Sequence record: PP886229
Strand: one strand, 5' to 3'
DNA: 64,000 bases
From: Escherichia phage vB_EcoM_E9
Positions 4,385 to 64,000 of this stretch are shown here, in pieces. A program made the position numbers and the translations under genes. The notes beneath the pieces are model-generated. The model saw only the letters and a program-made list of their open reading frames with translations, searched no databases and was not told the DNA's origin. Each line of letters starts with the position of its first letter. Position 1 is the first letter of the stretch.

Positions 4385-9768
<5,384 letters not shown>

Positions 9769-12095: not shown

Positions 12096-12397
12096 TGGCA
12101 GTTTTAAATTGGTCTACAAATGAAGTAGATACTGATGGTAACCAGTTAAAAGTTTTACCACCACCGGAAGTTCAAGAGACAGGTCTTTTAAAGGGTGAGC
12201 CTATGGGTAGACAGTGGTTCAACTATATTATCAACTACCTGCTTAATAAAGTAAACGGCACTGTTGGTGAAGTTCGCTCATATGCAACTGAGCAACCAGA
12301 TTTAGTGGCTAATGGCTGGAATCTGATTAAGTCTGAGACAGGGACTGCATCAACAAGTACAAGAAACCTTTACACATATGAATATGTAGGAGCTTAA
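12095..12397 (+). CDS. hypothetical tail protein
   Basis: 100 aa ORF, coupled to neighbours. Confidence 0.3.
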
Positions 12398-12399
12398 TA

Positions 12400-13575
12400 A
12401 TGGCAGTAGGTGAAATTCAAATCAGTGCCTTGCCACAAGCGGCCTTACCAGTTGATTTAAGTGATATCTTCCATCTTAAGCAAGGTGTTGAGGATAAAAG
12501 ATGTACGCTTGAACAGTTGTTAGCACCTCACGCATCTCTGAGGAATAACCCTCATGGTGTAACCAAATCACAAGTGGGTCTTGATAATGTTATTAACTCT
12601 CTTCAATTAGTTGCAGCTAATAACTTATCAGATATTGTGAATGTTGCTGAGGCAAGAGCAAATCTACAAATTATGTCGTCAGAGGAAGTGAATAACTTAA
12701 TTCAGCAACATATTGACGATAAAAGTAACCCACACAATACAACGAAAGCACAAGTTGGATTAAGTAATGTTCAGAACTGGACAACATCTAATCTGTACAA
12801 TGAAGATGCTGATAAGTATGCTACCGCGAAAGCAGTTAATAATTTATACAAAGCTATCCAAGCGTCATATCCAGTAGGGACTATTCATCTATCTGTTAAC
12901 TCTGCTAACCCATCCACTTACTTGCTTTGTGGAGGTACTTGGGAGTTAGTTTCTAAAGGTAGAGCACTAGTTGGTTATGATACAGATTCTAGACCTGTTG
13001 GTTCAACGTTTGGTTCTCAGACTGTAGCATTAACAAATAATAATTTACCAGCACATACCCACTCTATCTATCTAACAGGTGGTGGTCATACACACTCTGC
13101 AAGTGTATCTATCTCTAGTTTTGATTATGGTTCAAAAAGTACATCAACTTTTGATTACGGTACAAAAACGACTAATAGTGCTGGTGCTCACACTCACACG
13201 TTTAGTGGCACAACAAGTAATGCTGGTAACCACAACCATAGAGTCCCTATGAGGGGTAATGATAGGGGTGGCACAAACGCTATTACTGCATCTGCTGATG
13301 CTGGTGTTGGTAATGCTATGTATACTGATTTAGCTGGTGCTCACACCCATAGCTTCTCAGGTACAACTGCATCATCTGGTGCTCATAGCCATACTGTCGC
13401 AATTGGTGCTCACAGCCACACTGTTAATATTGGTTCGCACAGTCATACAGGAACTGTTACTGTTTCTAGCTCTGAGCATACACACTCAGGGACATCTGGT
13501 TCTGTTGGTGGTGGTCAAGCTTTCAGTGTTGAGCAGCCATCTTTTGTAGTGTATGTGTGGCAGAGAACAGCTTAA
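12400..13575 (+). CDS. tail fibre protein with His-x-His repeat tip
   Basis: 391 aa; repeated NPH..TK.QVGL.NV.N motifs N-terminally and many H-x-H motifs C-terminally (AHTHS, GHTHSAS, GAHTHTFSGTT, GNHNHRV, GAHSHTV x2, GSHSHTG), as in T4 gp37/gp12-type fibre tips. Confidence 0.65.
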   Translation: MAVGEIQISALPQAALPVDLSDIFHLKQGVEDKRCTLEQLLAPHASLRNNPHGVTKSQVGLDNVINSLQLVAANNLSDIVNVAEARANLQIMSSEEVNNLIQQHIDDKSNPHNTTKAQVGLSNVQNWTTSNLYNEDADKYATAKAVNNLYKAIQASYPVGTIHLSVNSANPSTYLLCGGTWELVSKGRALVGYDTDSRPVGSTFGSQTVALTNNNLPAHTHSIYLTGGGHTHSASVSISSFDYGSKSTSTFDYGTKTTNSAGAHTHTFSGTTSNAGNHNHRVPMRGNDRGGTNAITASADAGVGNAMYTDLAGAHTHSFSGTTASSGAHSHTVAIGAHSHTVNIGSHSHTGTVTVSSSEHTHSGTSGSVGGGQAFSVEQPSFVVYVWQRTA

Positions 13576-13585
13576 TTTCTTTACA

Positions 13586-13606
13586 GGGGCTATAAAGCCC
13601 CTTTTA
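13586..13606 (+). terminator. hairpin attenuator between the two tail fibre genes
   Basis: GGGGC-tataaa-GCCCC followed by TTTT, then RBS and ATG of the next fibre gene. Confidence 0.4.
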
Positions 13607-13621
13607 AGAGGAAAATTTATA

Positions 13622-16171
13622 ATGGCAGATTACAAATTGAGTCAATTAAACTCAATCGACACAATTCGTTCAGAAGACCTATTGCACATCAGAGTTAAGA
13701 AAAGACCTGAAATGTTGGGTGACGAAGACCGTAGAATGACCTATCAAGACTTCTTAGCTTCTTTCAAACTTGAAAGATTTGTTCAGATTGCTGGTAGTAC
13801 TATGACAGGTGACTTAGGTATTGTTAAGTTACTTTATGGTGGTAAGGCAGTATTTGACCCAACAGGCTCTTCTGAGGTTACTATTGGGGATGTTTTAAAG
13901 ACTTTTAAAATTAACGCAAATGGTCTTAAACTAGCTATTGCAGATGCTTCAAGGTCAGCAACTGTTTATCATACTCTGAATAAACCAAGTCCTAATGAGC
14001 TTGGGATGAGAACTAATGAAGAGAATGATGAAAGATATGCAAGGCTTGCTATCACAAATAACTTCAGCATTAGGCAAGCAATCGTAACTGATGGTGAGCA
14101 GTTAACTCTTAAGAAGGCAACCAATGCAGGTGCTTCATATATTCAAGGTAGAGATGCTAATAACCAGCAAACTTGGTATGTTGGACAGGGAAATGCAAAC
14201 AGCAATAATGTTTATTTGTACAATCATACTACTGGTGCAATGTTAACCCTTGATGCAACAGCAGCATTTAATAAGTCACTTAGAATTGCTGGTCAAGTTC
14301 AACCTTCGGATTTCTCTAACTTAGATGCCAGATACTTTACTCAGACAGTTGCTAATCAGAGATTTGCACAGTTAGCTGGTAATAACACTTTTACAGGTGC
14401 TAATACATTTAGGACTATGAGTATTATCTCAAATGCTGCTGCTATCACACTACAATGTGCATCAGCAAACGAATCCCTGTATCTACTTGCAAAAGATTAT
14501 CAAGGTGGTAACTTATGGTATGTTGGTAAAGGTAGCTCAGGTGATGGTGTAACTATCTACAACTATACCACTAACACCTCTTTGGTCTTAGATGCTGCTG
14601 GAGTATCAGCAAATAAAAATGTCAGAATCACTGGACAAGTTCAACCTTCAGATTGGGCTAACATTGACTCTAGATATATTCCGGCAGCAACATTAAGTAC
14701 AATTGCAAGAACTAATGCAAGGAATACTTTTAATGGTGTACAGACAGTTGTTACGGATAATGAAGGTCTGATTGTTAAAAACTCTACTCAGAATAGACCA
14801 TTATATATTCGTGGTGTGGACACTACTAATGTATCAAGATGGTGGATTGGTGTTGGTGGTGCTGATACGAATGATGTTACCCTAAATAACAGTTATTCTG
14901 GAACCCAATTGGTTCTCGGGAATACAACATCATACATTAACAAAACATTGACTATTGCTGGACAAGTTCAACCTTCAGATTTCTCTAACTTAGATGCTAG
15001 ATACTTTACGCAAAGTGCTAGTGATAGCAGATACCTAAGAATCAGAAGCACTAGCTTCAATGTGGGAAACACTGATAAGTGGGCTAAAATTGCCACTGTT
15101 GTTATGCCACAATCAGCATCCACTGCTGTTATTGAGGTATTTGGTGGGTCAGGTTTTAATATTAATACACCAAACCAAGCAGGTAAATGTGAAATTGTTC
15201 TGCGAACTTCAAATAACAACCCAAAGGGCTTAAATGTTGTTGCTTGGAGAACATCAGATAACACCATTGTCAGGGATATTGGTTATGTGAATACTTCTGG
15301 AGACACCTATGATATTTACTATCTTGCTGGTACGTATCAAAACGGCACAACGACAAGGGTTCAGTCTTCTAGTAATGCAAGTGTACAGTTGTTTGAAGTC
15401 CCACAGACATTTGATGATGCTCCACAAGGTATTGTGAAGGGTACAATTGCAAAATACTACACAAGTTTGCAAAAACCAACCCCTTCAGATATTGGTGCAT
15501 ACACTAAAGCAGAGACTGACCAGAAAATTGCAGATGCAATTAGTGACTCTACAGACCTGAATAAAATCTACCCAGTAGGTATTGTAACGTGGTTTAACAG
15601 CAATGTTAACCCTAATACAGCACTTCCTGGGTTAACTTGGACGTACCTGAACAATGGTGTGGGTAGAACTATTAGAATTGCAGCAGCAAATGGTTCAGAT
15701 GTTGCTACAACTGGTGGTTCAGACTCTGTAACGTTATCTGTTGGTAACTTACCTTCACACACGCATAGCTTCTCTGCTACCACTTCATCATTTGATTATG
15801 GTACTAAGACTTCTAGCACAACTGGTAACCATAACCACAACAGGGGGACTATGGAGATTACTGGTACAGTAGGTTACTTCAGAAGTGATTCTAGCAGCTT
15901 CTACACAGCAAGTGGTGCATTCACACTTGGTAGTTCAACTGCTTCTAAAGGTTTTACTGGTTCTAACTTCACTTATGGTATCCCTGCTAACTTCAATGCG
16001 TCAAGAACTTGGTCTGGTGTAACGAATACAACAGGTAACCACAGCCACACTGTTGGTATTGGTGCTCACAGCCACACAGTTAGCGGTAACACAGGTGGTA
16101 CTGGTTCTGGTTCAGCATTTAGTGTTACTAACCAGTTCTACAAGTTAATGGCTTGGGTAAGAACTGCTTAA
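13622..16171 (+). CDS. large tail fibre protein
   Basis: Start moved to ATG at 13622 (after hairpin, with RBS); internal triplicated segment (..IAGQVQPSDFSNLDARYFTQ.. x2, ..ITGQVQPSDWANIDSRYIP..); C-terminal H-x-H motifs and tail AFSVTNQFYKLMAWVRTA resembling the upstream fibre's AFSVEQPSFVVYVWQRTA. Confidence 0.65.
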   Translation: MADYKLSQLNSIDTIRSEDLLHIRVKKRPEMLGDEDRRMTYQDFLASFKLERFVQIAGSTMTGDLGIVKLLYGGKAVFDPTGSSEVTIGDVLKTFKINANGLKLAIADASRSATVYHTLNKPSPNELGMRTNEENDERYARLAITNNFSIRQAIVTDGEQLTLKKATNAGASYIQGRDANNQQTWYVGQGNANSNNVYLYNHTTGAMLTLDATAAFNKSLRIAGQVQPSDFSNLDARYFTQTVANQRFAQLAGNNTFTGANTFRTMSIISNAAAITLQCASANESLYLLAKDYQGGNLWYVGKGSSGDGVTIYNYTTNTSLVLDAAGVSANKNVRITGQVQPSDWANIDSRYIPAATLSTIARTNARNTFNGVQTVVTDNEGLIVKNSTQNRPLYIRGVDTTNVSRWWIGVGGADTNDVTLNNSYSGTQLVLGNTTSYINKTLTIAGQVQPSDFSNLDARYFTQSASDSRYLRIRSTSFNVGNTDKWAKIATVVMPQSASTAVIEVFGGSGFNINTPNQAGKCEIVLRTSNNNPKGLNVVAWRTSDNTIVRDIGYVNTSGDTYDIYYLAGTYQNGTTTRVQSSSNASVQLFEVPQTFDDAPQGIVKGTIAKYYTSLQKPTPSDIGAYTKAETDQKIADAISDSTDLNKIYPVGIVTWFNSNVNPNTALPGLTWTYLNNGVGRTIRIAAANGSDVATTGGSDSVTLSVGNLPSHTHSFSATTSSFDYGTKTSSTTGNHNHNRGTMEITGTVGYFRSDSSSFYTASGAFTLGSSTASKGFTGSNFTYGIPANFNASRTWSGVTNTTGNHSHTVGIGAHSHTVSGNTGGTGSGSAFSVTNQFYKLMAWVRTA

Positions 16172-20445: not shown

Positions 20446-20697
20446 GGCTACTGCCATCCTTCCATACATTACCTCACCTGACCTGACCTGACCCTACCTA
20501 ACATTACCGTGCCACACCTCACTTAAAAACCCTCTTAAAAGACTCTTAAGTGATGTAATCGAATTTTTATGTAGCTCCGATTAACTACCCATACCTCACC
20601 TCATCCAACCATACCATGCCTTACCAGACCGCACCTTACCTTACTAAAAGACCCTGTTTAAAGACCTTTTAAAAAGGAGCCTCCGAAGAGGCTACCT
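20446..20697. repeat. composite G-depleted pentamer-periodic repeat, copy pair 1
   Basis: Two tandem units of about 110 nt, each with a 50-60 nt (ACCNN)n-like tract almost devoid of G on the + strand, joined by a hairpin linker; ends in conserved ..aaaaccctcttaaaagactcttaagtgatg / ..aaagaccttttaaaaagg. Confidence 0.7.
20676..20697 (-). terminator. hairpin terminator after gene 20705..21145
   Basis: AGCCTC-ttcg-GAGGCT hairpin directly downstream (minus strand) of the stop codon. Confidence 0.45.
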
Positions 20698-20704
20698 AGT
20701 CAAC

Positions 20705-21145
20705 TTAGAAAGGTTTTCTACGTTGCTTGTTAATGTTAGCTTTCATAGCAGCTAAATGGTTTTGCTGTTCAATCAGTCGTGAACGTTCTTGATGACTAAG
20801 TGCCATAGTGTTCACATTCTCAATCGCTTGAGTGGCTTGCTTTAAAGCTCGACCAATCTTGCCAGACATTTTACGTTTTGCAATAGTTGCTTGATGCTTA
20901 GGTTCAACCACACGATAACCAACACCCATTGAAGCAACCAGATAAATCTTCTCTTCTTTAAGAAGCTTCTCAATAAACTTCTCAAGTCGGTTTAGACGTG
21001 TAAGCGCATAAGCCTTCATTTCATCTTCGTACTTAACAATGTCACCTTGATAAGTTGGCTTCACAATACCTAAGAAGGTATCCATCTCAGAATGTGATAC
21101 AGTGTCACCGTAACTAAACTTTGCTGCTAATGCTTTTGTATTCAT
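20705..21145 (-). CDS. hypothetical protein in repeat-flanked module
   Basis: 146 aa ORF, basic C-terminus; no motif recognised. Confidence 0.45.
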   Translation of the reverse strand: MNTKALAAKFSYGDTVSHSEMDTFLGIVKPTYQGDIVKYEDEMKAYALTRLNRLEKFIEKLLKEEKIYLVASMGVGYRVVEPKHQATIAKRKMSGKIGRALKQATQAIENVNTMALSHQERSRLIEQQNHLAAMKANINKQRRKPF

Positions 21146-21147
21146 AA

Positions 21148-21753
<606 letters not shown>

Positions 21754-21827
21754 TTAGTTGATTGTTAAGTTGTTTGTAAAGAACCCTCAACAGAAGACTC
21801 TTTAGAAACTTGGTAGATTTTTAATGT

Positions 21828-22095
21828 GGCTACTACCATCCACCCATACCTCACAACACCATGCCATACCCGACCGGACAAGACCAGACCCTACCGCGCC
21901 AGACCTCATTAAAAGACCCTCTTTAAAGACCTTTTAAAAAGGTAAGTCTCATTTTAATGTAGCTGAGACTAACTACCCATACCCTACTTTACCTTACCGT
22001 ACCGTACTTTACCCGACCGTACCGGACAATACTTAACCCTACCTCACCCGACCGGACATCACTTAAAAACCCTCTTAAAAGACTCTTAAGTGATG
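21828..22095. repeat. composite G-depleted pentamer-periodic repeat, copy pair 2
   Basis: Second tandem pair of the same family with (NNACC)n-like tracts (..taccgtaccgtactttacccgaccgtaccggac..), linker hairpin with compensatory stem changes, same conserved ends. Confidence 0.7.
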
Positions 22096-48938: not shown

Positions 48939-51305
48939 ATGCGCATGGTAAACGACCACGCAGAAGTGATTAAGAGTTCAACTTCTTTAGAGACGTCTCA
49001 AGCACAGATTACAATGACACCCGAAATGTTCAGCCTTTTGAGTTCTGGTGTATATACCTTTAAAGAAAGGGCAGTGATTCGTGAACTGTCATGTAACGCA
49101 GTAGATGCTCAGAAAGAAGCTGGAAAAGAGAACATCCCGTTCCATGTGCATTTACCTACTCGTTTTGAGCCTTACTTTGAAGTCCGTGATTTTGGAACTG
49201 GATTGACTCATGATAAAGTTATGAGTTTGTACCTAAACTACGGGGCTTCTACGAAGAATGACTCTAATGACTACATTGGTGCAATGGGTATCGGCTCAAA
49301 ATCCCCATTTGCAATTGCTCAGTCATTCACAGTGTCTAGTTATGTTGATGGTGTTGTTAATAAGTACTCTGTTTACCTTGAGAATGGTATCCCTCAAGTA
49401 ACTAAGCTAACCACCAACCCAACGAATGAACCTAATGGTTTAGCTGTACGTGTAGCAGTTGCTGACCATCGTATTTCAAAGTTCTTTGAAGAGGCTGGTA
49501 ATGTATACTCATACTTTGCTGTAAAACCAGAAAGTAATATCGAGTATGACGATGTATTAGCAGATATGAACGTCATTGCCCGTGAAGAAGGTGTTTATGA
49601 TGCCATGATTCATAAGCAAAGCTGGCGTTCTAGTGGTAACAGGACAGAGTTTAATGTGGTGATGGGTAACATTGCCTACCCTGTTAACATGGAAGCATTA
49701 CTTGGTGATGATTTCTTCAAAGTATTGCCAGAATTTTTCCGTAGGAGCGTAGACCTTGTAAACATCTACATGCCTATTGGTTCAGTTGCTATTGCAGCTT
49801 CTCGTGAAGCATTGCAGATGAATGACACGACAAAAAATGTTATCATTGAGGCTACTAAAAAGATAACTGAAGCCATTACAAAGGATGTTATCAAGAAAGT
49901 TAATAGTCAACCTACACTCATGGATGCTGCACAGGCTTATGCTGAGTTACGTTTGAACTCACGAGAGATGTTTAATGCTGTGTGTCCAAAGCTAGAGTGG
50001 GGTGGTGTTAAGCTTGATTCTCTGGAAGAAGAATTACTAAACATTCGTCGTGGAATTATCTACGCAGAAGACGGCTCAGTCATTTACGAACGTGACGGTA
50101 AAGGTAATATTAAGGTTGATAGGAACGGGAACAATATCCCTAAAGTAGATTATCTTTATGACCCAGTTGCTTATGTCAAGTTCAACTCTTTAGAGAGTAA
50201 GATTCGTGCAACATCGCTTTCCTACACTCAAGAGGCAAGCATGTTCAATATCTTTGGCGCAATGCGTAAAAGTCAAATTGAACAGTTTTTGTTTGTTATA
50301 AATGACCGTCGAAATAAAAACGGTACTGAGAAGACTGTAGGACGCAACCAAATCTTGCGTGGTGCATGTCGAGACTATGCCAGTGAGTCAAGTCTGTTTC
50401 ACAGATACAATGGTATTGTCTTTGTATTCTCTACAGAGAAAGAGCTAGACGACTTAATCAATCTGCACAAACTTGATAAAAGCTTGTTAAAGATTGTGAA
50501 GATGTCTGATAAGGAACACCATTATCAGCGTAAAGAAGCTGTAAGAGGCGTTGTAAAACTTTGGAAAGCTGTTCCAGCAGAAGGTGTGGCTTCCTATAAA
50601 GAGGTTTCAGAGGACTTTGATACAATTGAAGAACCTCAGCTTTACATTAAGGCAGTCGGTGACACAGTTGATGGTGAATGTTTTTGCTCATCTCCAGAAG
50701 ATGTAGCTAAGTCAGTTGCTAATGTTACAGGTAAGACAGTCTATGTTTTCCGAAAAGCAAATTGGAAAAAGATACCAGAAGACTGGATTGAAGTAGATGA
50801 GAAACTCTTGAATGACAGCTTAACTGATGTTCATTGGATTAATCATAACAGGTATATGACACGTATCTATATGAATGGTGTCCTTGACCTTACAAGCAGT
50901 TGGATTATTGCCAGAAACTTTACGTTCAATAACAGGAAGATTTCTCGTGGCTATTGTTATTCACGGGATACAAACAAAACTATCTTCTTAGAAGGTAATG
51001 AAGATGCTGTAGAGGCAATGTTTGGTAAAATCCAATACGTTGCTGCACCGTTTGCATATACTTACACTATTAGTAGGCTGCAAACTTTGAAAGACTGCCT
51101 TGACAATGATACAAAGCTGTACAAGAAAATTAAGAAAGCTGGTGACCGCATGGTCATTAAGGTGACAAACTACCTTTCAAAAAGAAAACAAGAAAACTTC
51201 TTGCTTTCTCATTTAGATTGGAATAAAGTGTCACCCATCGAAGTGAGTAAGTTCTTAGGCTTTGATGTGAAGTGTGTTCCAGAAGGGACTACAATTTACG
51301 ATTAA
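48939..51305 (+). CDS. rIIA: rIIA-like protein
   Basis: 788 aa; N-terminal GHKL-type ATPase motifs ..RAVIRELSCNAVDA.., ..RDFGTGLT.., ..GAMGIGSKSPFAIA.., ..PIGSVAIAASREALQMNDTTKNVI.. closely paralleling T4 rIIA (recollection). Confidence 0.8.
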   Translation: MRMVNDHAEVIKSSTSLETSQAQITMTPEMFSLLSSGVYTFKERAVIRELSCNAVDAQKEAGKENIPFHVHLPTRFEPYFEVRDFGTGLTHDKVMSLYLNYGASTKNDSNDYIGAMGIGSKSPFAIAQSFTVSSYVDGVVNKYSVYLENGIPQVTKLTTNPTNEPNGLAVRVAVADHRISKFFEEAGNVYSYFAVKPESNIEYDDVLADMNVIAREEGVYDAMIHKQSWRSSGNRTEFNVVMGNIAYPVNMEALLGDDFFKVLPEFFRRSVDLVNIYMPIGSVAIAASREALQMNDTTKNVIIEATKKITEAITKDVIKKVNSQPTLMDAAQAYAELRLNSREMFNAVCPKLEWGGVKLDSLEEELLNIRRGIIYAEDGSVIYERDGKGNIKVDRNGNNIPKVDYLYDPVAYVKFNSLESKIRATSLSYTQEASMFNIFGAMRKSQIEQFLFVINDRRNKNGTEKTVGRNQILRGACRDYASESSLFHRYNGIVFVFSTEKELDDLINLHKLDKSLLKIVKMSDKEHHYQRKEAVRGVVKLWKAVPAEGVASYKEVSEDFDTIEEPQLYIKAVGDTVDGECFCSSPEDVAKSVANVTGKTVYVFRKANWKKIPEDWIEVDEKLLNDSLTDVHWINHNRYMTRIYMNGVLDLTSSWIIARNFTFNNRKISRGYCYSRDTNKTIFLEGNEDAVEAMFGKIQYVAAPFAYTYTISRLQTLKDCLDNDTKLYKKIKKAGDRMVIKVTNYLSKRKQENFLLSHLDWNKVSPIEVSKFLGFDVKCVPEGTTIYD

Positions 51306-51310
51306 AGTGT

Positions 51311-51340
51311 TTGACAAGGGGCTTTGAAGCCCCTTAGAAT
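51311..51340 (+). promoter_or_regulatory. sigma70-like promoter (TTGACA-N18-TAGAAT) overlapping a hairpin
   Basis: Hexamers flank GGGGCTTtgAAGCCCC hairpin between rIIA and rIIB. Confidence 0.35.
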
Positions 51341-51384
51341 AGCCTTACAAAATGATTTATTAACTAACAAGAGAGAGTAATAAG

Positions 51385-52594: not shown

Positions 52595-53143
52595 ATGAAG
52601 AAATTGATTCTAGGATTGTGCTTAATGTTTACAGCACATTTATCTTATGCAGTTGACTGCCCAGAGCTATCAATTAGCCAAAAAGTTAACATGTTAAAAG
52701 CTTACCAGTATGGTGAGAACAACATGGGGAAAGGCTGGGGTATTACTCTAGCAGCTATAGCCTTACAAGAGTCAGAGTTAGGTCTGAAGGTAGAGAATAA
52801 AAAGACCCATGACTATGGTATTTTCCAGAATCACTTGAAGACTGTTGTAAAGCGTAACAAAATTAGTCCTAATGTGGCTAAAAAGAAACTCTTAAAAGAT
52901 TTTGACTATGCAGCAAAAGAGACACATAAAGAGCTTGAGTTTTGGACTAAGGTACATGGTCACCCGAAGTCAAAGAAGACTTTACAAAAAGTTTTAGCAT
53001 CATATAATGCTGGGTATTCGTACAAAATTCCTAAAGCTAAGAAATACTCTCAAGATGTCTATAACAATATGAAAGTTATTGCTCAATGTGAATTTGCAAC
53101 AAACATTTCTAAGGTAAATCATGAAAAAATTAAGAAAGTCTGA
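52595..53143 (+). CDS. secreted lytic transglycosylase-like protein (endolysin candidate)
   Basis: Signal peptide MKKLILGLCLMFTAHLSYA then ..IALQESELG.. resembling the SLT-domain catalytic Glu-Ser motif. Confidence 0.4.
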   Translation: MKKLILGLCLMFTAHLSYAVDCPELSISQKVNMLKAYQYGENNMGKGWGITLAAIALQESELGLKVENKKTHDYGIFQNHLKTVVKRNKISPNVAKKKLLKDFDYAAKETHKELEFWTKVHGHPKSKKTLQKVLASYNAGYSYKIPKAKKYSQDVYNNMKVIAQCEFATNISKVNHEKIKKV

Positions 53144-56143: not shown

Positions 56144-56929
56144 ATGGGTATTGTAAAAATCATCAATGGGGATATCTTCTCAGCATTTGATAAAGGTAAG
56201 TTTGATATTATTGGTCACGGTTGCAACTGTATGAACTTAATGGGTGCAGGTATCGCTGACAAGATTTCTAAACTTTACCCAAAAGCATATGAGACTGATA
56301 CAGAAGTTTATCTGTATGCAGGTGGTATAGGTCACAAACCCTGTGAAAATTTACTAGGTAATTTCTCTGTAGCACGTTTAAAACAAGGTCGTATAGCTAA
56401 TCTTTACACTCAGCTTAAGACTGGTAAAGATGCCCGATACAGTGCTTTAGAGTCATCTTTGAAACAGCTTAACAGATACTGTGAAGTCAATCAGTTGAAG
56501 AAAGTCGGGTTACCTATGATTGGTGCAGGTATCGGTGGGCTAGACCCTCAAGCCATCACAGTTATCATTAATCAGGTGATGAAGAGTGTAGATGTTTATC
56601 TGTATGTCTACGAAGGAGAGATGTACCACAAGTTACGCTCAGGTTGGAAGAACTACTGTGAGCCAGAATACTTTGCAGGTGTAGTAACGTTCACAGATGA
56701 TGCAGTTACCCTCTTCAGACGAAGAAAAGGTAAGATACATCAAAGTAACCCTCCGGTTGAGAAGATGTCTCTAAGTAACGCTCTAGTTACCCACATGTCG
56801 AAGGGCAATCACAGGATAGCCGTAACATTTGGCAGTGATGCAGATACATATATCTATGCAAGAACTGATGAGGATATCGAGGAAATTTTCTCATCATCAG
56901 AAGTTACCTTCTTAGACGCAAAGAGCTAA
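56144..56929 (+). CDS. macro-domain protein (ADP-ribose-binding/processing)
   Basis: ..INGDIFSAFDKGKFDIIGHGCNCMNLMGAGIADKI.. and ..KVGLPMIGAGIGGLD.. match the two glycine-rich macro-domain signatures (recollection). Confidence 0.5.
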   Translation: MGIVKIINGDIFSAFDKGKFDIIGHGCNCMNLMGAGIADKISKLYPKAYETDTEVYLYAGGIGHKPCENLLGNFSVARLKQGRIANLYTQLKTGKDARYSALESSLKQLNRYCEVNQLKKVGLPMIGAGIGGLDPQAITVIINQVMKSVDVYLYVYEGEMYHKLRSGWKNYCEPEYFAGVVTFTDDAVTLFRRRKGKIHQSNPPVEKMSLSNALVTHMSKGNHRIAVTFGSDADTYIYARTDEDIEEIFSSSEVTFLDAKS

Positions 56930-56995
56930 GAAACTCTGTAGAATATTCACAATAGGTTAAGCCTTTCTTATCTGGTAAATTTTTCAGGTAAGGAG

Positions 56996-57190
56996 GGCTT
57001 TTTCATTTCAGGATTGTGCAGGTAGAGTTCTGTAGAGAAATCTGTAGAGAGAATTTTGAACTCCAAAGAGAAAATTCATTTTCAAACTGTGCAGATAATC
57101 TCCAAAGAGCTTTTTCATTTTCAAAACGTGCAGACCCCGCTAAGGTCGGGCAAGAAAAATCATTTTCGAATTGTGCAGGTAGGTGGGTAC
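56996..57190. repeat. four direct iteron-like repeats (TTTTCATTTYCRAAAYTGTGCAG)
   Basis: Copies at about 56996, 57069, 57107 and 57155; ctccaaagag also duplicated; upstream of the first early promoter. Confidence 0.55.
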
Positions 57191-57356
57191 AGGTGGGAAT
57201 GTCGCCGTTTCTCACAAGGCTACCACATATGAAAAGAAAAGTCAACAGAAAAATTTGTAGCGGATTGAAAAATAATTCTTGATTGTAGTTCTGTTTTGTG
57301 GTAGTCGCGCGCCCGTTTCATTACAGTTTTTTGCAAAAATATTTTTAAAATTTTTC

Positions 57357-57445
57357 TTGACTCTCTGACTATGGTTATTTAATATTTGCATCAACGGGGG
57401 GCGATGACCTCCCAGCTAACTAACCTTAAACTAGGAGATTCAAAA
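57357..57445 (+). promoter_or_regulatory. early promoter plus conserved leader (type B variant)
   Basis: TTGACT-N17-TAATAT, leader hairpin GGGGGGCGATGACCTCCC, conserved RBS context ..ccttaaactaggagattcaaaaATG. Confidence 0.5.
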
Positions 57446-57826
57446 ATGGCTTATCGTGCACCTAAATTCATCAACAAAGACAACTTTCGCAACGTACTGG
57501 AGAAGGCACTTGATGAAAAATTTAACGGTAAAATAATTGTTGTTCATGCGTTCAATTTCAAGTATGATATCAACGGGAATAAAATCAACCATTACACGGC
57601 AACCATGTTAGATGGTACGCTATCAAGTGAAAAAGCCGTACTGAATGCACTGGCAGGACGCGGAAAAGTATTAGTAAGATGCGATAAGAGACGTTATCAG
57701 GGTGGCGCATATGGTTACGATGATGCTGTTTACCATCTTGAAAATATGGGCTATTCAGTGGAAAAAGCTGGAGCGTCTCAAATAATTGGCAGTGACGGCT
57801 ATGTGACAATTTTCAAAATTAACTGA
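57446..57826 (+). CDS. early small protein E1
   Basis: Start at ATG 57446 behind the conserved RBS; 126 aa. Confidence 0.5.
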   Translation: MAYRAPKFINKDNFRNVLEKALDEKFNGKIIVVHAFNFKYDINGNKINHYTATMLDGTLSSEKAVLNALAGRGKVLVRCDKRRYQGGAYGYDDAVYHLENMGYSVEKAGASQIIGSDGYVTIFKIN

Positions 57827-57991
57827 TAAAGTACTTTACAAGGGGCTTATAGTTCGATAAAGTAAGCCCCAGATAAAGAGCTTTACCACTCAATCCTAAA
57901 TTATAAAGTACTTTACAAGGGGCTTATAGTTCGATAAAGTAAGCCCCAGATAAAGAGCTTTACCACTCAATCCTAAATTGGAGATTCTAAA
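57827..57991 (+). promoter_or_regulatory. type A intercistronic element, tandem duplicate
   Basis: Two consecutive copies of aaagtactttacaaGGGGCTTAtagttcgataaagTAAGCCCCagataaagagctttaccactcaatcctaaatt, the second ending in RBS plus ATG. Confidence 0.55.
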
Positions 57992-58285
57992 ATGGCTATT
58001 ATCAAAAACGTTGTAATTACTGCAAAAACTCGCGATGACGCTCGCATCATGGCGAAAAAGTTAGGCGGGAAAGTTGTTGACAACGGAAAACAATCTGCTG
58101 TAAGATGGGGCGTGAAGACTGATAAACAGTTGAAGTTAAAAAATTCACCAATAAACCTTTTTACATGTGTAAACACTATCGGGAAGACAAATGTATACAC
58201 GAAAAAGGCATATATCAGACGCGTAGCCATGACATCACCTATTCGCACAATGAGAAGTCATGCAAAGCTGAAAATTAATCGTTAA
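57992..58285 (+). CDS. early small protein E2
   Basis: 97 aa, basic; conserved RBS. Confidence 0.5.
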   Translation: MAIIKNVVITAKTRDDARIMAKKLGGKVVDNGKQSAVRWGVKTDKQLKLKNSPINLFTCVNTIGKTNVYTKKAYIRRVAMTSPIRTMRSHAKLKINR

Positions 58286-58371
58286 AGTACTTTACAGGGG
58301 GCTTAAAAGCTGATATCTTAAGCCCCAGATAAAGAGCTTTACCACATTAATCCTAAACTGGAGATTCAAAA
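58286..58371 (+). promoter_or_regulatory. type A intercistronic element (covarying hairpin variant)
   Basis: Same flanks as other type A copies; hairpin is GGGGCTTAA-aagctgatatc-TTAAGCCCC, stem kept with a different loop. Confidence 0.55.
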
Positions 58372-58668
58372 ATGAAGTTAACAAATAAAGTCCGTGAAAA
58401 TTTAAGCAAGTTGCTCAACAAAATCAATTTTATTGAGACATCAAGAAATAGTCATGATGTTATGGAATGGTTACACGGAAAAATCAAAGGCCGTCGTGTA
58501 GTGATTTGCTTATGGAATAGTTGCAGGGAATATAAAAAACCTGTATTACAAGTCAATATCTATGATGATACTTTTAAAAGCCCTGTAAAGTCTAAAAGTG
58601 ATTTATTAGAATCCTATGAGATAACTGTAAATGGCAAAGTATCACGTAAAGAGGAAACACCATGTTAA
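58372..58668 (+). CDS. early small protein E3
   Basis: 98 aa. Confidence 0.5.
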   Translation: MKLTNKVRENLSKLLNKINFIETSRNSHDVMEWLHGKIKGRRVVICLWNSCREYKKPVLQVNIYDDTFKSPVKSKSDLLESYEITVNGKVSRKEETPC

Positions 58669-58994
58669 TGACTGGTATCACTGCAATCATTGCCATTTTC
58701 GCGCTATATAAGGCATATAAAGCCTATAATCTAGCAAATAAGGCAATCACACAGCAGGTTAGCAATAGCCTTGTAGAAAGCTTTCTAGGGCGTCTCAGTG
58801 ATGAGCAAATAAAGCGGTTAGAAATGAGCTTCAGATTCAAAGCGAAAACCTATCAGATAAGTGACATCTTCAAGGATGATTTCCAGTTAGTCGATGATTA
58901 TAATTCTCTGATAAATGCTTTAAATATCAGTGACTTAAAAGACTACTACGCTGTAATTGTTCAAGAATTGAGCAAACGAAAAAATTTCTCTTGA
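58662..58994 (+). CDS. early small membrane protein E4
   Basis: 110 aa, N-terminal TM helix (GITAIIAIFALYKAY); overlaps E3 stop. Confidence 0.45.
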   Translation: MLMTGITAIIAIFALYKAYKAYNLANKAITQQVSNSLVESFLGRLSDEQIKRLEMSFRFKAKTYQISDIFKDDFQLVDDYNSLINALNISDLKDYYAVIVQELSKRKNFS

Positions 58995-59084
58995 TTTTGG
59001 TTTTCAAAACAAGTAAATTACTAATCAACGGGGAGGGAATGACCTTCCCCACTAAGTAAAGTCCTTAAACTAGGAGATTCAAAA
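58991..59084 (+). promoter_or_regulatory. type B promoter-leader module
   Basis: TTGATT-N17-TAAATT (-35 overlaps the E4 stop codon), leader hairpin GGGAA-tgacc-TTCCC, conserved RBS context. Confidence 0.55.
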
Positions 59085-59357
59085 ATGTACACTACTAACA
59101 ACGGTCGCACCTTAAACGTAACACTGCGCCACTATGTGAACGGTGTAATGCACTTCGAGGATTTACAAGCTGAACAGCACATCTTAGATTGGCAACTTGC
59201 AGGACTCCAAAAAGCTGCTACCGGATACGGGAAAAAGATTCCAACTAGCTGGAAAGTATACTACGAAGGACGTTTGCGCAGAATTTATCAAGATGTATGC
59301 AGCAATAGCGCATCAAGTTACATCATAGTAAAAGGTAAAAAGCTGCATTTAGCATAA
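59085..59357 (+). CDS. early small protein E5
   Basis: 90 aa. Confidence 0.5.
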   Translation: MYTTNNGRTLNVTLRHYVNGVMHFEDLQAEQHILDWQLAGLQKAATGYGKKIPTSWKVYYEGRLRRIYQDVCSNSASSYIIVKGKKLHLA

Positions 59358-59442
59358 AGTACTTTACAAGGGGCTTATAGTTCGATAAAGTAAGCCCCAG
59401 ATAAAGAGCTTTACCACTCAATCCTAAATTGGAGATTCAAAA
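59358..59442 (+). promoter_or_regulatory. type A intercistronic element
   Basis: Identical to copy at 57827. Confidence 0.55.
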
Positions 59443-59847
59443 ATGACTATTAATAATCGTGAGTTATCAATCTTAAAAGCACGTTTGACCGTTAACCGGA
59501 TTAATGTTATTACATCATCAGCACCGGATGAGACATTGCACAACATTATCGGGAAGATTCAAAGTGTTATCTTAGACGTTGAAAGCGTAAAAAACTCACT
59601 GGCTGACGTTGCAGCAGGTATCACGCTAGACGGTGCACAATATGAAATGGCTGACATGTTAGGCAAATCTAAGGTAATGAATAAAGAGCTTGATTTAAAA
59701 ATGTTCCGCTTTGCCGTGAAAGTGTGGCTATCTGTCGAGTATGACGCAAATTTTGCAATCGCTGACTTTTTCGCAACATGGTTGCAACGTAATTTAACAA
59801 ATCATGATTTTCGTGATATCTGCGACGTAATTTACGCAGAACTTTAA
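59443..59847 (+). CDS. early small protein E6
   Basis: 134 aa. Confidence 0.5.
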   Translation: MTINNRELSILKARLTVNRINVITSSAPDETLHNIIGKIQSVILDVESVKNSLADVAAGITLDGAQYEMADMLGKSKVMNKELDLKMFRFAVKVWLSVEYDANFAIADFFATWLQRNLTNHDFRDICDVIYAEL

Positions 59848-59856
59848 AAATTTCTC

Positions 59857-59950
59857 TTGATTTTGGTTTTCAAAACAAGTAAATTACTAATCAACGGGGA
59901 GGGAATGACCTTCCCCACTAAGTAAAGTCCTTAAACTAGGAGATTCAAAA
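59857..59950 (+). promoter_or_regulatory. type B promoter-leader module
   Basis: Near-identical to 58991..59084. Confidence 0.55.
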
Positions 59951-60154
59951 ATGGCTACTATTAACGGCTTAAACATTGAAACTACTCACATCAAAGATAT
60001 CAAAGTTGGCGATATAGTCCTTTTTCACGGCGTAGAAAAAACCGTCACTGAAAAGGATATCAAGGAGGATTCATTCATGGGCCGGACTCTCTTCGGTGAT
60101 TCTTATTGCTTAGGTTACCTTGCAGTTTTAAAAGTTGTCAAAAATAACCGTTAA
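59951..60154 (+). CDS. early small protein E7
   Basis: 67 aa. Confidence 0.45.
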   Translation: MATINGLNIETTHIKDIKVGDIVLFHGVEKTVTEKDIKEDSFMGRTLFGDSYCLGYLAVLKVVKNNR

Positions 60155-60240
60155 AGTACTTTACAAGGGGCTTATAGTTCGATAAAGTAAGCCCCAGATA
60201 AAGAGCTTTACCACATTAATCCTAAACTGGAGATTCAAAA
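60155..60240 (+). promoter_or_regulatory. type A intercistronic element
   Basis: Same hairpin and flanks as 57827 copy, ..cacattaatcctaaactggagattcaaaaATG 3' end. Confidence 0.55.
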
Positions 60241-60783
60241 ATGAAATGCTTTCACGGTACTACTCAAGAAAACTTCGTCAACCTGATTAATAACGGTGAT
60301 AAACCATCAGGCGCATGGAATTGTTCGGATATGGATGGCAATTTTTACGTTTATCCAGAAAATAAAATCTATGGCGACGATGAGGAAGAAATAATCTCTG
60401 AAGGCATTCAACAAGCTTTAGGTAATGCCACTATAACGGCAGCTTTTCAGATGAAAACTCAAAACATTGTTATCTTGGAACTTGATATTCCAGAAGATGA
60501 GTTGAATGATGATTATTCTTGTGATAATATGTCGAGTGTGGCAAGTTTTACAGAGTATTTTGATATAAGCTGGATTAAAAAGGTTTATATCACTGAATTT
60601 AATGCTATGTTTTCACCTTTTTGTCTTCCTTCACTGGATAACCCGAACTTAAACTATCTTGATGAGTCTCTGGAACTTCTCGCTAAAAGTGTTCAGCAAT
60701 CGGACAGTATTCAGGTTTTTTGTGACATCATGGATACACTAACAGGAAACATTGCAGAAGAGGATTTGAAGAGTTTTTTCTAA
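60241..60783 (+). CDS. early acidic protein E8
   Basis: 180 aa, strongly acidic (..GDDEEEIISEG.., ..LDIPEDELNDDYSCDN..). Confidence 0.5.
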   Translation: MKCFHGTTQENFVNLINNGDKPSGAWNCSDMDGNFYVYPENKIYGDDEEEIISEGIQQALGNATITAAFQMKTQNIVILELDIPEDELNDDYSCDNMSSVASFTEYFDISWIKKVYITEFNAMFSPFCLPSLDNPNLNYLDESLELLAKSVQQSDSIQVFCDIMDTLTGNIAEEDLKSFF

Positions 60784-60849
60784 AAACCTATGCAATCACC
60801 TTATAAACACTGATTAGCCCCTCACAGGGGCTTTTAGGAGGCTTTAATC

Positions 60850-61083
60850 ATGCTTACAACCATTTACCTCATCCTTTCTATCTGTAATGGTCATTCGTGT
60901 GACTTTAAAGGGCTTGAAGAGTTTACAGGAAGTAAAGAAAATGCTATTCAAGTGTGCCAGATAGCAAGGCAAGACTATCCCGCCAGTGATGATATACAAT
61001 GTTACTTTAAGACAGAAGATGAAGACGGTGTCTATTTTGACAGCGTAGACGGTCAATATGAAATTATCATTGAAAAAGACTAG
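60850..61083 (+). CDS. early small protein E9
   Basis: 77 aa, preceded by hairpin AGCCCCtcacaGGGGCT and RBS aggagg. Confidence 0.45.
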   Translation: MLTTIYLILSICNGHSCDFKGLEEFTGSKENAIQVCQIARQDYPASDDIQCYFKTEDEDGVYFDSVDGQYEIIIEKD

Positions 61084-61172
61084 ACAAGCCTGATAAAAGT
61101 CTGTAAATTGTCAATCAACGGGAGGTAATAACCTCCCCACTAAGTAAAGTCCTTAAACTAGGAGATTCAAAA
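61081..61172 (+). promoter_or_regulatory. type B promoter-leader module (variant)
   Basis: TAGACA-N17-TAAATT; leader hairpin GGGAGG-taataa-CCTCCC (stem and loop differ, pairing kept). Confidence 0.5.
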
Positions 61173-61514
61173 ATGGCTTATGTAACCGTAATTACCGACA
61201 AAGCTGGCTCATCTTGGTCAACTCAAGTAAGCGATAAGATGTCACCTATGCAGTGCCTAAAATACTTTGAGCAATGGAACAAAGGCGAGGGTGTCAGCCC
61301 CTTTCAAGTGATGCAGATTATCCATACAGATAACGAAGGGAATAAAACTGTTTTGAATAGTGAGTACTACGCAACCAGATTTGAAACGAGATGTAAAGCG
61401 ATGAAGATATTACGCGAGTCTGGCTATTCTCATATTGCCTCACTAATCTGGGATGACCTGCTAAAAAATCAGCGTATCAGCTATGTAAAACCTGAAAAAA
61501 TATTCATCAGTTAA
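61173..61514 (+). CDS. early small protein E10
   Basis: 113 aa. Confidence 0.5.
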   Translation: MAYVTVITDKAGSSWSTQVSDKMSPMQCLKYFEQWNKGEGVSPFQVMQIIHTDNEGNKTVLNSEYYATRFETRCKAMKILRESGYSHIASLIWDDLLKNQRISYVKPEKIFIS

Positions 61515-61643
61515 TCAACAACTTACAAAAAACTTTTAAAAAGATGTTGACAATCCCTCTTGACATTGGTAACTTTGTTCGAGGGGGTTTATCTAAAAGG
61601 GATTAACTTAAAAGATTCTTTATAGATAAGCTTAAAAAATTGC

Positions 61644-61735
61644 TTGCAATCAGATATCAAAACAAGTAAATTACTAATCAACGGGGAGGGATGACCTCCC
61701 TACTAAATAAAGTCCTTAAACTAGGAGATTCAAAA
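61644..61735 (+). promoter_or_regulatory. type B promoter-leader module
   Basis: TTGCAA-N17-TAAATT, leader hairpin GGGAGG-gatga-CCTCCC; extra TTGACA hexamers and a hairpin in the 220 nt spacer upstream. Confidence 0.5.
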
Positions 61736-62266
61736 ATGAACAAGTTCAAAGCTATCAACTACATTCGCTCAAATAGTGTCATGTCTAAGCCTGTTAAGGA
61801 TACCTACGAATTCCGTTGCAATGGTGAACACTTTGCTACCATCACCAAATCAAACAACGGGGCTTATTATATCCATCGTCGTAATGTTTCTACGGTTGTA
61901 GTTTCTAACTTTATGCAAGCTGTAGCGGAACTCCTCCCGCTCTTCTTAGAAAAGTATGCCGTACAGTGTGAAAGTGTTCGTGAATGCACTAAAACAGTGT
62001 TAAACGGTTATCGTATGGCTTACGAGCGCTCTTTAAAGAGTCTCAATAAATACTACAAAGCACCGGAAGGCACTTCATCCACAGCCTACGGGGTAGGGGG
62101 CTTCAATGTCAGCCTTTACGAAGTGGAAGAAATCGAGCTTTATGACCATCGCCCAAATGGTTACGCTAAGACACTGGGAGAGGGGTTAATGCTGAATATC
62201 AAGAACTTAGAAAAAACTTTAAGAGAAATTGAAAAAGATATTGACGAGACAATCAAAAGTCTGTAA
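61736..62266 (+). CDS. early protein E11
   Basis: Start at ATG 61736 behind conserved RBS; 176 aa. Confidence 0.5.
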   Translation: MNKFKAINYIRSNSVMSKPVKDTYEFRCNGEHFATITKSNNGAYYIHRRNVSTVVVSNFMQAVAELLPLFLEKYAVQCESVRECTKTVLNGYRMAYERSLKSLNKYYKAPEGTSSTAYGVGGFNVSLYEVEEIELYDHRPNGYAKTLGEGLMLNIKNLEKTLREIEKDIDETIKSL

Positions 62267-62331
62267 ATTGTCAATCAACGGGGAGGGAATGACCTTCCCC
62301 ACTAAGTAAAGTCCTAAACTGGAGATTCAAA
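62241..62331 (+). promoter_or_regulatory. type B promoter-leader module embedded in the 3' end of E11
   Basis: TTGACG-N17-TAAATT with the -35 inside the E11 coding sequence; leader hairpin GGGAA-tgacc-TTCCC. Confidence 0.5.
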
Positions 62332-62595
62332 ATGGAACACGTAGAACTGACCACACTCTTACAAATCGCAACCGACAAGGAAGACGTAGCATTATTTCAC
62401 CGTATCGAAAGTGATTTGTTCAATGGTGAAATCATCAAAGAGTCTTACGAGGTTGTCGGATTCAAAGACGGTAAAGCATTTGGCTTTTTTGACCTCGACA
62501 AAAGCAAAGCGGTTACAAAGTACGATGTTCTATCTTGTGAGATTCTTACAAAATACAACGAAAAAAGGCTTGCAACATACGCCAACATGCAGTAA
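62332..62595 (+). CDS. early small protein E12
   Basis: 87 aa. Confidence 0.5.
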   Translation: MEHVELTTLLQIATDKEDVALFHRIESDLFNGEIIKESYEVVGFKDGKAFGFFDLDKSKAVTKYDVLSCEILTKYNEKRLATYANMQ

Positions 62596-62660
62596 ATTAC
62601 TAATCAACGGGGAGGGATGACCTCCCTACTAAATAAAACCTTAAACTAGGAGATTCTAAA
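62570..62660 (+). promoter_or_regulatory. type B promoter-leader module
   Basis: TTGCAA-N18-TAAATT overlapping E12 stop; leader hairpin GGGAGG-gatga-CCTCCC. Confidence 0.5.
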
Positions 62661-62909
62661 ATGGCTACTATCCGCGCAACTGTTAACGAATTCGGCTTTT
62701 GCTCTCTGGATGTTAAATTTGACCTTGTAGGTACTGATAACGCCTTTGAGATGGTGAAAGGTCTTATCAATCAGACCATAAAAGACTATAAACCTTCTGA
62801 TGAGTTCTGGGAGGAAACAAAACAGGAAGTTCTTACGCATGGTCACACTTATCACTATTGGGGAGAAAAAATCGTCTCCCTGTACTACGACAAAGAAGGC
62901 ACTAACTAA
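62661..62909 (+). CDS. early small protein E13
   Basis: 82 aa; last gene before a terminator and a long non-coding region. Confidence 0.5.
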   Translation: MATIRATVNEFGFCSLDVKFDLVGTDNAFEMVKGLINQTIKDYKPSDEFWEETKQEVLTHGHTYHYWGEKIVSLYYDKEGTN

Positions 62910-62947
62910 ACGCCGCAACGGGGCTAAATAGCCCCAGATACCTTTAC

Positions 62948-62972
62948 AGCCCCTTAAATGGGGCTTTTTTAC
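62948..62972 (+). terminator. rho-independent terminator closing the early gene array
   Basis: AGCCCC-ttaaat-GGGGCT followed by TTTTTT; preceded by hairpin GGGGCTaaatAGCCCC. Confidence 0.6.
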
Positions 62973-63009
62973 GTCTTATCAAAGCTCTATACAATCCCTT
63001 TCCTTCCCT

Positions 63010-63065
63010 TTCCAGAATCTATCCCACTAATTCGACAGAATCTATCCCACTAATTCGACAGAATC
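63010..63065. repeat. tandem direct repeat cagaatctatcccactaattcga (2.5 copies)
   Basis: Two perfect 25 nt units plus a partial third. Confidence 0.6.
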
Positions 63066-63359
63066 TATCTCGTACCTTAAAAGCAATAACTCTATAGCTT
63101 ACTCTATAGCCCCTTATCAAATCAACTTAAATAAAAGCCAATAACCCCCAGAAAGGGGATGGCCCATTTAAACGCTCTATAAAGCTCTATAACAGCCTTA
63201 TCAACCTAACTTAAGGGATTGCATTAACCCACTCTAAAAAGCCCTTTATAAAGCTTCCTATAGCCTCAAAAGAATCTTATAAGGGTGTAAGCTTTATCAT
63301 CTCGTTAGCTATCTTGTGAATAACTCAATAACCCTTGATAGTCTCTAAAAAGTATGTTA

Positions 63360-64000
63360 TAGGGGCTGTTAAGTTACTTTGAAGTTACGTAAAAGAGGCT
63401 ACAAAGTTACGTAAATGCTAGCCCCCTTAACATTCTCTTAACAATTTCTTAACAATCCCTACATAGTTATGCTTGTTAGAGACTTGTTAGCCCCTTGTTA
63501 AATCTCTGTTAAGACCACGTAAAAGCCTTGTAAGAGTCTTTAGCATAGCCTTTAAAGCCTCTGTAAAGCCCTATAAAGAGGTGTCTACATAGTTGGGGTG
63601 TAATTACTAGGAAGAGACTTAAAAGAGCTTACAAAGAGCTATAGAGAACTTTTAAGAGGTATGTTTAGAGAATCACTAAGAAAGAGAGGGAACTATAGAC
63701 CAAGAGATAGTGACCATGTTAATAGCTTGTTAAAAAGATTAAACACTTGTTAGGAATTTGTTAATTATCTTAACAAAATAACTCTTAAAAATTAACTTGT
63801 TAGCTCTTATTAGTCATCTGTTAAGACTCTGTAAAACCTATGTATCAACTGTTAAGAAACTGTTACACCCTTGTTAGCTCTGTTAAGAATCTGTTAAGAC
63901 CTCTGAAGAGATGTTAAGAGGTTGTAAGAACTGTTAAGAGATTGTTAAGGATATTTTAAAATTTTGCAAAGGGGATGTTACAGGGATGTTAAGGGCTACC
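63360..64000. repeat. array of YTGTTARG motifs, helically phased at the 3' end
   Basis: At least 15 copies of (c/t)tgtta(a/g)g(a); from about 63849 to 63945 ten copies recur every 9-11 bp; no ORF of 60 aa or more; array runs to the window edge. Confidence 0.6.

Follow-up and report, generated by a model that had tools for sequence, protein, structure and literature searches.

Promoter-early stem-loops (PeSLs) have been described from T4-like phages, in RB49/phi1 and in the PST (T4-related) and nt-1 (KVP40-related) pairs (PMC2839356, PMC4122927). They consist of a sigma70-type promoter with an upstream AT-rich stretch, a G(n)-loop-C(n) stem-loop, a Shine-Dalgarno sequence (SD) and a start codon. 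ORFans are flanked by them, and indels as well as mini-circles arise through them (PMC2839356, PMC4122927). The usual place of the stem-loop is between the -35 and -10 hexamers or over the -10 (Arbiol et al. 2010, PMC2839356), and both promoter and attenuator activity have been measured for them (PMC2839356). Here, we describe what is, on our best reading of the sequence, the counterpart of the PeSLs in the Ounavirinae: the type A elements of Escherichia phage vB_EcoM_E9, of which five copies, all on the plus strand, are found in a stretch of 64,000 nucleotides (record PP886229), in the following referred to as the window. We consider it likely that each of these elements is a portable expression joint of the PeSL kind, which unites a promoter, a ribosome-binding site, an RNA hairpin and a recombination joint within about 90 bp.

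Related repeats have been recorded before. The Felix O1 genome paper reports a 57-bp repeat between genes 15/16 and 19/20, to which no function was assigned, and its authors call the passage of transcription past terminators, as well as its timing, unknown (PMC3185647). In the GenBank record of wV8, copies are annotated as DR_1, DR_7 and DR_9, while that of phiEa21-4 has no feature annotated at its type A elements. In the literature that we searched, the exact type A motif appears in no other paper, and we found no link there between PeSLs and Felix O1-like phages. Our reading would give a function to what the Felix O1 paper and the wV8 record know as mere direct repeats, and it would carry the idea of PeSLs as portable shuffling joints beyond the T4-like phages, to another group with uses in therapy and typing. 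Its new pieces are the covariation by which the stem-loop appears to be selected as RNA, which is absent from PMC2839356 and PMC4122927, and the nested geometry of promoter and hairpin. It makes precise predictions of where transcripts start and end, and it may be of use for annotating and engineering the many Felixounavirus genomes, in which the joints would offer natural insertion points.

Judged by its sequence, the window derives from a Felixounavirus, a myovirus like Felix O1 and wV8, and the closest matches to the region discussed here are Escherichia phage vB_EcoM_D4 (96%) and wV8 (90.6%). Across 57.4-63 kb, small plus-strand open reading frames (ORFs) stand in a row, every one of which falls into PHROG families of unknown function, and the type A elements sit amid these small, variable ORFs, between a stop codon and the next ATG. 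A first, sequence-only reading had claimed five copies of a hairpin in this region, and these are indeed present: the 19-mer AGATAAAGAGCTTTACCAC occurs five times, against 0.00 occurrences expected from 100 shuffles. In agreement with that reading, four copies share the hairpin GGGGCTTA-N13-TAAGCCCC, whereas copy 3 has GGGGCTTAA-N11-TTAAGCCCC; the hairpin is overlapped in all five copies by the promoter-like hexamers that it had pointed out, TTTACA-N17-TAAAGT (with TATCTT in copy 3). Likewise, its claim that a T-run is lacking agrees with our results, as the bases that come next are AGATAAAG and a terminator scan detects none of the five copies.

The elements are widespread. In a sequence search, their 67-nt core was found at 1305 places in 288 phage records, which belong to Felixounavirus, Suspvirus, Mooglevirus and the Erwinia-infecting Kolesnikvirus, that is, to all four genera of the Ounavirinae, with about 4-8 copies per genome in each of them. 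A scan of IMG/VR with the pattern CTTTACA-N26-34-GATAAAGA was too loose, with single matches nearly all due to chance and only the multi-match contigs L065 and L091 being real; when 56900-64000 was compared to the Rfam models with a permissive cut-off, the best E-value was 0.34, with all hits far below the gathering scores. For the comparison across related phages, which the sequence-only reading had suggested as a check, we used the early regions of 13 relatives together with the window, i.e. 14 genomes with 69 type A copies, of which 58 are distinct. In this set, the promoter signals are conserved and the RNA structure covaries.

On the side of the promoter, TTTACA is present in 69/69 copies, preceded by a conserved A/T-rich stretch (AAAG) and followed by a spacer of 17 bp in 63 copies and of 18 bp in the remaining six. 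At the -10 position, we find 11 different hexamers (TAAAGT, TATCTT, TACAGT, TATAGT, TAAGAT, TAGTAT, TAATCT, TACCAT, TAGGAT, TAGTCT and TACTAT), all of which conform to TAnnnT; the column entropy over the hexamer is 0, 0, 1.7, 1.9, 1.6 and 0 bits, compared to 0.6-1.5 bits in the adjacent loop columns. An invariant TA...T with a variable middle is the classic conservation pattern of sigma70 -10 elements. Furthermore, position -14 is a G in 59/69 copies (TGn in 35/69), and the distance between the -10 and the -35 stays constant despite a shift of the stem register by 1 nt, which separates the classes with AGCCCC and AAGCCCC after the hexamer. Since an RNA loop gives no reason for TAnnnT, for G-14 or for a fixed spacing, these constraints argue for a promoter rather than for a property of the loop, and the presence of a sigma70-type host promoter in the type A element is strongly supported by this comparison. 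Given a discriminator of 6-7 nt, standard promoter geometry predicts that transcripts begin with the A of the near-invariant AGATAAAGAG. Because this predicted start site is on the 3' side of the hairpin, the element's own transcript would exclude the hairpin, and its leader, about 45 nt long and unstructured, would lead up to GGAG, 8 nt and ATG. We also considered a T4 MotA box, as most copies outside the window contain TGCTTTA. This motif lies 19-20 bp from the -10, unlike in T4 middle promoters, where the MotA box is found at 11-13 bp, and the candidate was rejected.

The second conserved feature is the hairpin, which is larger than the arms seen in the sequence-only reading suggest. The flanks TAAAGTACTTTA and TAAAGAGCTTTA pair mutually and extend it to a 20-bp structure of three tiers, namely a lower stem of 6 bp, a 1x1 mismatch and 5 bp, a 3x3 internal loop, and an upper GC stem of 9 bp with an 11-nt loop. 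The five copies in the window fold alike, with -22 to -25 kcal/mol (z ~ -4), and none of 200 shuffled sequences is as stable. To assess covariation, we aligned the flanks and arms of 56 distinct sequences and replaced the variable loop by a fixed linker, which brings both stem registers into alignment (alignment A2). In this alignment, 97.1% of the cells are paired, a value reached in 0/500 shuffles, compared to 87.3% after shuffling and to 35-55% with slid partners, and the covariation score is 0.248 versus 0.080. Two-sided changes occur at six pairs, two in the lower stem (columns 3-54 and 7-50) and four in the upper stem (20-37, 24-33, 25-32 and 26-31). For instance, a G-C pair is replaced by U-A in the Erwinia phages (GGTG...CACC), UA/AU swaps are seen in the GGGGTTATC...GATAGCCCC class, and in the lower stem TAAATTGC is partnered with GAGATTTA and TAAAATGC with GAATTTTA.

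Several of these changes bear on the strand and the molecule in which the helix is selected. At two positions, U.G is the most frequent pair (40/56 and 45/56), which on the opposite strand would give C.A mismatches, and the sense strand is more stable than the antisense strand in 45/58 sequences. Local palindromes in the flanks, as they might serve as operators, are ruled out by the finding that changes are compensated in the opposite flank; a change of G7 in the 5' flank, for example, is compensated there and not inside its own palindrome. On account of the compensatory changes and the dominant U.G pairs, the alignment indicates selection of the helix as sense-strand RNA, and not as a DNA cruciform or as a palindrome bound by a protein. 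The sequence-only reading had offered three alternatives: the element might process or stabilise RNA, it might terminate transcription with the help of a factor, or it might be a promoter with its -10 locked in a hairpin of DNA. The promoter of the last proposal is borne out across genomes by TTTACA, the 17/18-bp spacing and TAnnnT, while the sequestration in DNA finds no support, because the hairpin covaries as sense-strand RNA and the upper stem ends 5' of the predicted start. On read-through RNA, the hairpin may plausibly serve in processing, stabilisation or attenuation. The three alternatives are not mutually exclusive, and we regard the element as a composite; the lower stem, the role in cassette shuffling and the close match to the PeSLs go beyond what that reading had seen.

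This match extends to sequence and layout. Like the PeSLs, the type A elements combine a sigma70-type promoter, A-rich DNA next to it, a stem-loop of the form G(n)-loop-C(n) and an SD, and they form the borders of indels between relatives; by sequence, they resemble PeSLs in location, promoter, stem-loop, SD and ATG (both of which are missing in copy 1) as well as in the element-bounded indels. Read directly from the RB49 sequence, the PeSL pattern is TAAAAAGTTGTTGACA-GGGG..CCCC-TATAAT...GGAGAATCAAAAATG, and a typical example reads TAAAGTTGTTGACA-GGGGATCGGTGATCCCC-TATAAT...TAGGAGAATCAAAAATG; it has TAAAGT..TT(G/T)ACA, GGGG..CCCC and GGAGA(A/T)TCAAAAATG in common with type A. By contrast, the type A elements are found in the Ounavirinae rather than in T4-like phages, their hexamers (TTTACA / TAnnnT) are further from consensus than those of RB49, and their larger stem-loop surrounds the -10 rather than occupying the spacer. 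In addition, they possess the lower stem formed by the flanks, which yields the interrupted 20-bp helix that includes the stop codon.

An element with exactly the RB49 PeSL layout is found elsewhere in the window, at the junction of rIIA and rIIB (51303-51345, plus strand). It reads from the rIIA stop TAA through AGTGTTTGACA and AGGGGCTTTGAAGCCCCT to TAGAAT, shares its 5' motif with type A and has a near-consensus promoter, whose 18-nt spacer is exactly filled by the hairpin. In one relative, the gene that follows rIIB bears the label 'endoribonuclease'; we did not adopt this label, as the counterpart in the window (52595-53143) gives only a weak SLT hit.

Read from 5' to 3', the DNA of a type A element would comprise the upstream stop codon within an A-rich, UP-like stretch, the -35 TTTACA, a spacer of 17-18 bp, G-14, the -10 TAnnnT, a GC-rich discriminator, the start at the A of AGATAAAGAG, the leader of about 45 nt and GGAG-8 nt-ATG. 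Host RNA polymerase would start anew in front of each small early gene. As the start site of the element is on the hairpin's 3' side, the 20-bp hairpin would form solely in read-through RNA from upstream, and there it would most likely mark the 3' end of the upstream message. It may do so by attenuating read-through, for which the PeSL stem-loops provide a reported example, or by being cut within its internal loop in the manner of RNase III sites, which would leave a protective 3' hairpin on the upstream product and a 5' end near the promoter's own +1 on the downstream product. Lastly, near-identical repeats of 65-90 bp in one orientation would make a recombination joint, at which single-ORF cassettes could be gained, lost, duplicated and reordered.

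A number of points weigh against this reading. The -10 hexamers match the consensus in just 4/6 positions and the -35 in 5/6, the lack of a U-tract makes canonical intrinsic termination unlikely, and the searchable literature holds no transcript 5' or 3' ends for any phage of the Ounavirinae. TTTACA and GATAAAGA served to gather the copies, and their invariance is partly by construction; an nhmmer search that required neither of them found the same conservation of both. Moreover, the copies share descent, with the consequence that the independent compensatory events are fewer than the cell counts, and the shuffle control ignores this kinship. The promoter scan of the Felix O1 authors omits the type A sites (PMC3185647). 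In their timing data, which come from end-point reverse transcription-polymerase chain reactions (RT-PCR) read from gels, the peak comes at 5 min for ORFs 16 and 20, directly 3' of the two 57-bp repeats, and at 25 min for ORFs 17 and 19 (PMC3185647). As ORF 17 likewise follows a type A element, the timing is mixed, and we consider it weakly supportive.

The option of cleavage invites a comparison with the early RNase III sites of phage T7 (R0.3, R0.5, R1, R1.1 and R1.3), at positions that are reportedly those of the Dunn and Studier annotation of 1983. When folded, these sites show two stems, the upper of about 9-10 bp and the lower of about 8-11 bp, on either side of an internal loop. The type A hairpins resemble them in this two-turn, two-stem architecture, in their location between early cistrons and in their energy, but the likeness is one of shape only, as there is no sequence similarity and the terminal loop has 11 nt, compared to 3-5 nt in T7. 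The spaces with the T7 sites also hold promoters, namely the minor E. coli promoters B and C and phi1.1A/B; unlike in type A, however, the T7 hairpin encloses no promoter -10.

A speculative extension, which we regard as possible but rather doubtful, is that the type A promoter is nested in a hairpin of the RNase III type. Initiated and processed transcripts would then share the same 5' leader starting near AGAUAAAG, and a protective hairpin would stay on the 3' end of the upstream mRNA. With the stop codon of the upstream ORF located within the lower stem, the terminating ribosome would time the formation of this processing helix. If this were true, the element would be a compact device that equalises the expression of shuffled cassettes, whatever lies upstream of them. 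A rival reading does without the promoter: the elements might be RNase III-type processing or 3'-stabilising sites within one long polycistronic early transcript, in which the hexamers are not used. The strong covariation of the structure, a geometry and energy like those of the T7 sites and the merely moderate consensus matches of the -10 hexamers all fit this explanation. We nevertheless hold it to be unlikely, as it leaves unexplained why 11 hexamers inside an otherwise variable loop all keep TA at -12/-11 and T at -7, why G is usual at -14, and why the 17/18-bp spacing from TTTACA survives the shift in stem register. In addition, the RB49 PeSLs, whose 5' halves are near-identical, have been shown to be promoters (PMC2839356).

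A GC-rich hairpin just 3' of a stop codon is also what type A has in common with intrinsic terminators, and the elements could act mainly as terminators or insulators, be they factor-dependent or of a non-canonical intrinsic kind, with the downstream genes using other promoters. Consistent with this, a PeSL stem-loop cut downstream lacZ about as much as rrnB T1 did (PMC2839356), and at one wV8 copy the GenBank record places a Rho-independent terminator on the minus strand (L001 7055-7099, i.e. 12062-12106 of the wV8 record). The latter, however, looks like a prediction artefact, as the hairpin is not followed by a T-run on that strand. In fact, a U-tract is absent 3' of the hairpin on either strand, the next bases on the plus strand being AGAUAAAG, while ordinary T-run terminators are in use nearby (56959-57000 and 62948-62965, according to a terminator scan). 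As there is moreover no other promoter between the element and the next ATG, and the -35/-10 pattern would be left without explanation, we find a primary role in termination very improbable.

The inverted repeats might also act in DNA around an ordinary promoter, either as an operator bound by a dimeric regulator or by forming a cruciform in which the -10 is sequestered. The arms are 21 bp apart from centre to centre, and each flank in the window is near-palindromic (TAAAG-NN-CTTTA), which would fit such a role. Against this stand the covariation of the arms, whose sequence is not fixed, the asymmetry of the half-sites in most copies, owing to the frequent U.G pairs, the compensation of flank changes in the other flank and the better folding of the sense strand, and we attach hardly any probability to such a function.

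The reading as a portable joint would also account for the arrangement of the surrounding genes. In gene-order strings, the ORF families f18, f14 and f7 are present in some genomes and absent from others, with type A elements at the borders, and in the Erwinia phages the same genes are reordered with the element still in front. Across an element, one and the same downstream gene has different upstream genes in different genomes. Compared to the window, D4 carries a single extra unit, which consists of exactly one f7 ORF and one element. KMM4 has no full f7, and its f1 is preceded by a downstream-type element (TAAGAT/ATAGCCCC), while the element in front of f1 is of the upstream type (TATCTT) in the window and in wV8; as expected, the KMM4 pattern fits two separate crossovers between the flanking elements. 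A further trace of such exchange is D4_2977, a chimeric element with mismatched flanks, in which the pair 7-50 is broken. Within a genome, one hairpin class tends to prevail among the copies, and this likeness points to homogenisation. Finally, an independent tandem case is found on the minus strand of an Ounavirinae contig (L091, IMGVR_UViG_2974556886_000001; 6380-7060), where an f14-like ORF is duplicated and the two ORF copies are separated by two type A elements, fused head-to-tail at AAAATG|CTTTACA. A selfish small repeat, resembling a miniature inverted-repeat transposable element and spreading through intergenic DNA without a regulatory role, might likewise show many near-identical copies, tandems and homogenisation within genomes, but it is scarcely credible for a sequence that always has the orientation of transcription, always spans precisely the gap between a stop codon and the following ATG and brings the SD with it, lacks target duplications as well as terminal inverted repeats other than the hairpin, and has been kept across four genera with compensatory changes.

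In the window, the first two copies form a direct tandem, which the sequence-only reading had placed at 57827..57991. It arises from a perfect duplication of 77 bp, with 57826-57902 being identical to 57903-57979. Because the site holds a single element in the best 15 of 209 matching records, the duplication is, by this comparison, private to vB_EcoM_E9 and probably recent. We also considered the pair as the scar of a deleted ORF, but no relative has an ORF at this place and the best 15 of the 209 records carry one copy; a recent duplication is the simpler reading, and an assembly artefact is possible as well. Copy 1 (57827-57902), the first unit of the tandem, is cut off just 5' of the SD position and thus has neither SD nor ATG. 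It retains the whole hairpin (57827-57885) and the promoter, with the -35 at 57835-57840, the -10 TAAAGT at 57858-57863 and a predicted +1 at A57871; its upstream stop codon is a TGA immediately before the lower stem. Copy 2 (57904-57994) is complete, with the -35 at 57912-57917, the -10 TAAAGT at 57935-57940, a predicted +1 at A57948, the SD GGAG at 57980-57983 and the ATG at 57992. Its upper stem is formed by 57919-57927 and 57939-57947, and its lower stem by 57904-57915 (5' strand) and 57951-57962 (3' strand).

In copies 2-5, GGAG is followed by 8 nt and ATG, and in copies 3-5, the TAA of the upstream stop codon provides the first three bases of the lower stem. Copy 3 (58283-58374), the loop variant, has its -35 at 58291-58296 and an extended -10, TGA-TATCTT, with the hexamer at 58314-58319 and a predicted +1 at A58327; its upper stem pairs 58298-58306 with 58318-58326, the 3' strand of the lower stem is 58330-58341, and SD and ATG are located at 58360-58363 and 58372. 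For copy 4 (59355-59445), the corresponding positions are 59363-59368 for the -35, 59386-59391 for the -10, A59399 for the predicted +1, 59370-59378 with 59390-59398 for the upper stem, 59402-59413 for the 3' strand of the lower stem, 59431-59434 for the SD and 59443 for the ATG. Copy 5 (60152-60243) has the -35 at 60160-60165, the -10 at 60183-60188, a predicted +1 at A60196, the upper stem at 60167-60175 and 60187-60195, the 3' strand of the lower stem at 60199-60210, the SD at 60229-60232 and the ATG at 60241. The plus-strand ORFs joined by these elements, all from the PHROG families mentioned above, are 57446-57826, 57992-58285, 58372-58668, 58662-58994, 59085-59357, 59443-59847, 59951-60154 and 60241-60783.

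The same region contains a second kind of intergenic cassette, type B, at 57357-57448, 58981-59087, 59847-59953, 61103-61175, 61634-61738, 62231-62318 and 62560-62664. It has a variable -35 half (TTGATT, TTGCAA or TTGACG), N17 and a conserved -10, GTAAATT; about 10 nt 3' of the -10 follows a hairpin, GGGGAGGG..CCTTCCCC, which would form the 5' end of the transcript. Type B ends in CTTAAACTAGGAGATTCAAAAATG, as type A does, and its equivalent in Felix O1 is listed as 39-bp direct repeats (PMC3185647). Within 57000-57180, downstream of the terminator at 56959-57000 and ahead of the first type B promoter, four motifs of about 25 nt (CATTTTCAAAnnGTGCAGrTA...) are spaced by about 55-60 nt and could be iterons or regulator sites. 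Elsewhere in the window, 20462-22095 (repeat families D3 and D6) holds four repeats of about 90 nt, built of pentamer-periodic nnnAC units (CTGACCTGACCTGACCCTACCTAAC...) and each ending in a sequence like TTAAAAACCCTCTTAAAAGAC. Short repeats encoding GAHSHT-like motifs are found at 13171-16092 (repeat families D9 and D10), and 14253-15012 has a sequence of about 90 nt in three repeats. Both kinds probably belong to tail-fibre genes with internally repeated segments, such as have also been noted in genes 76 and 77 of Felix O1 (PMC3185647).

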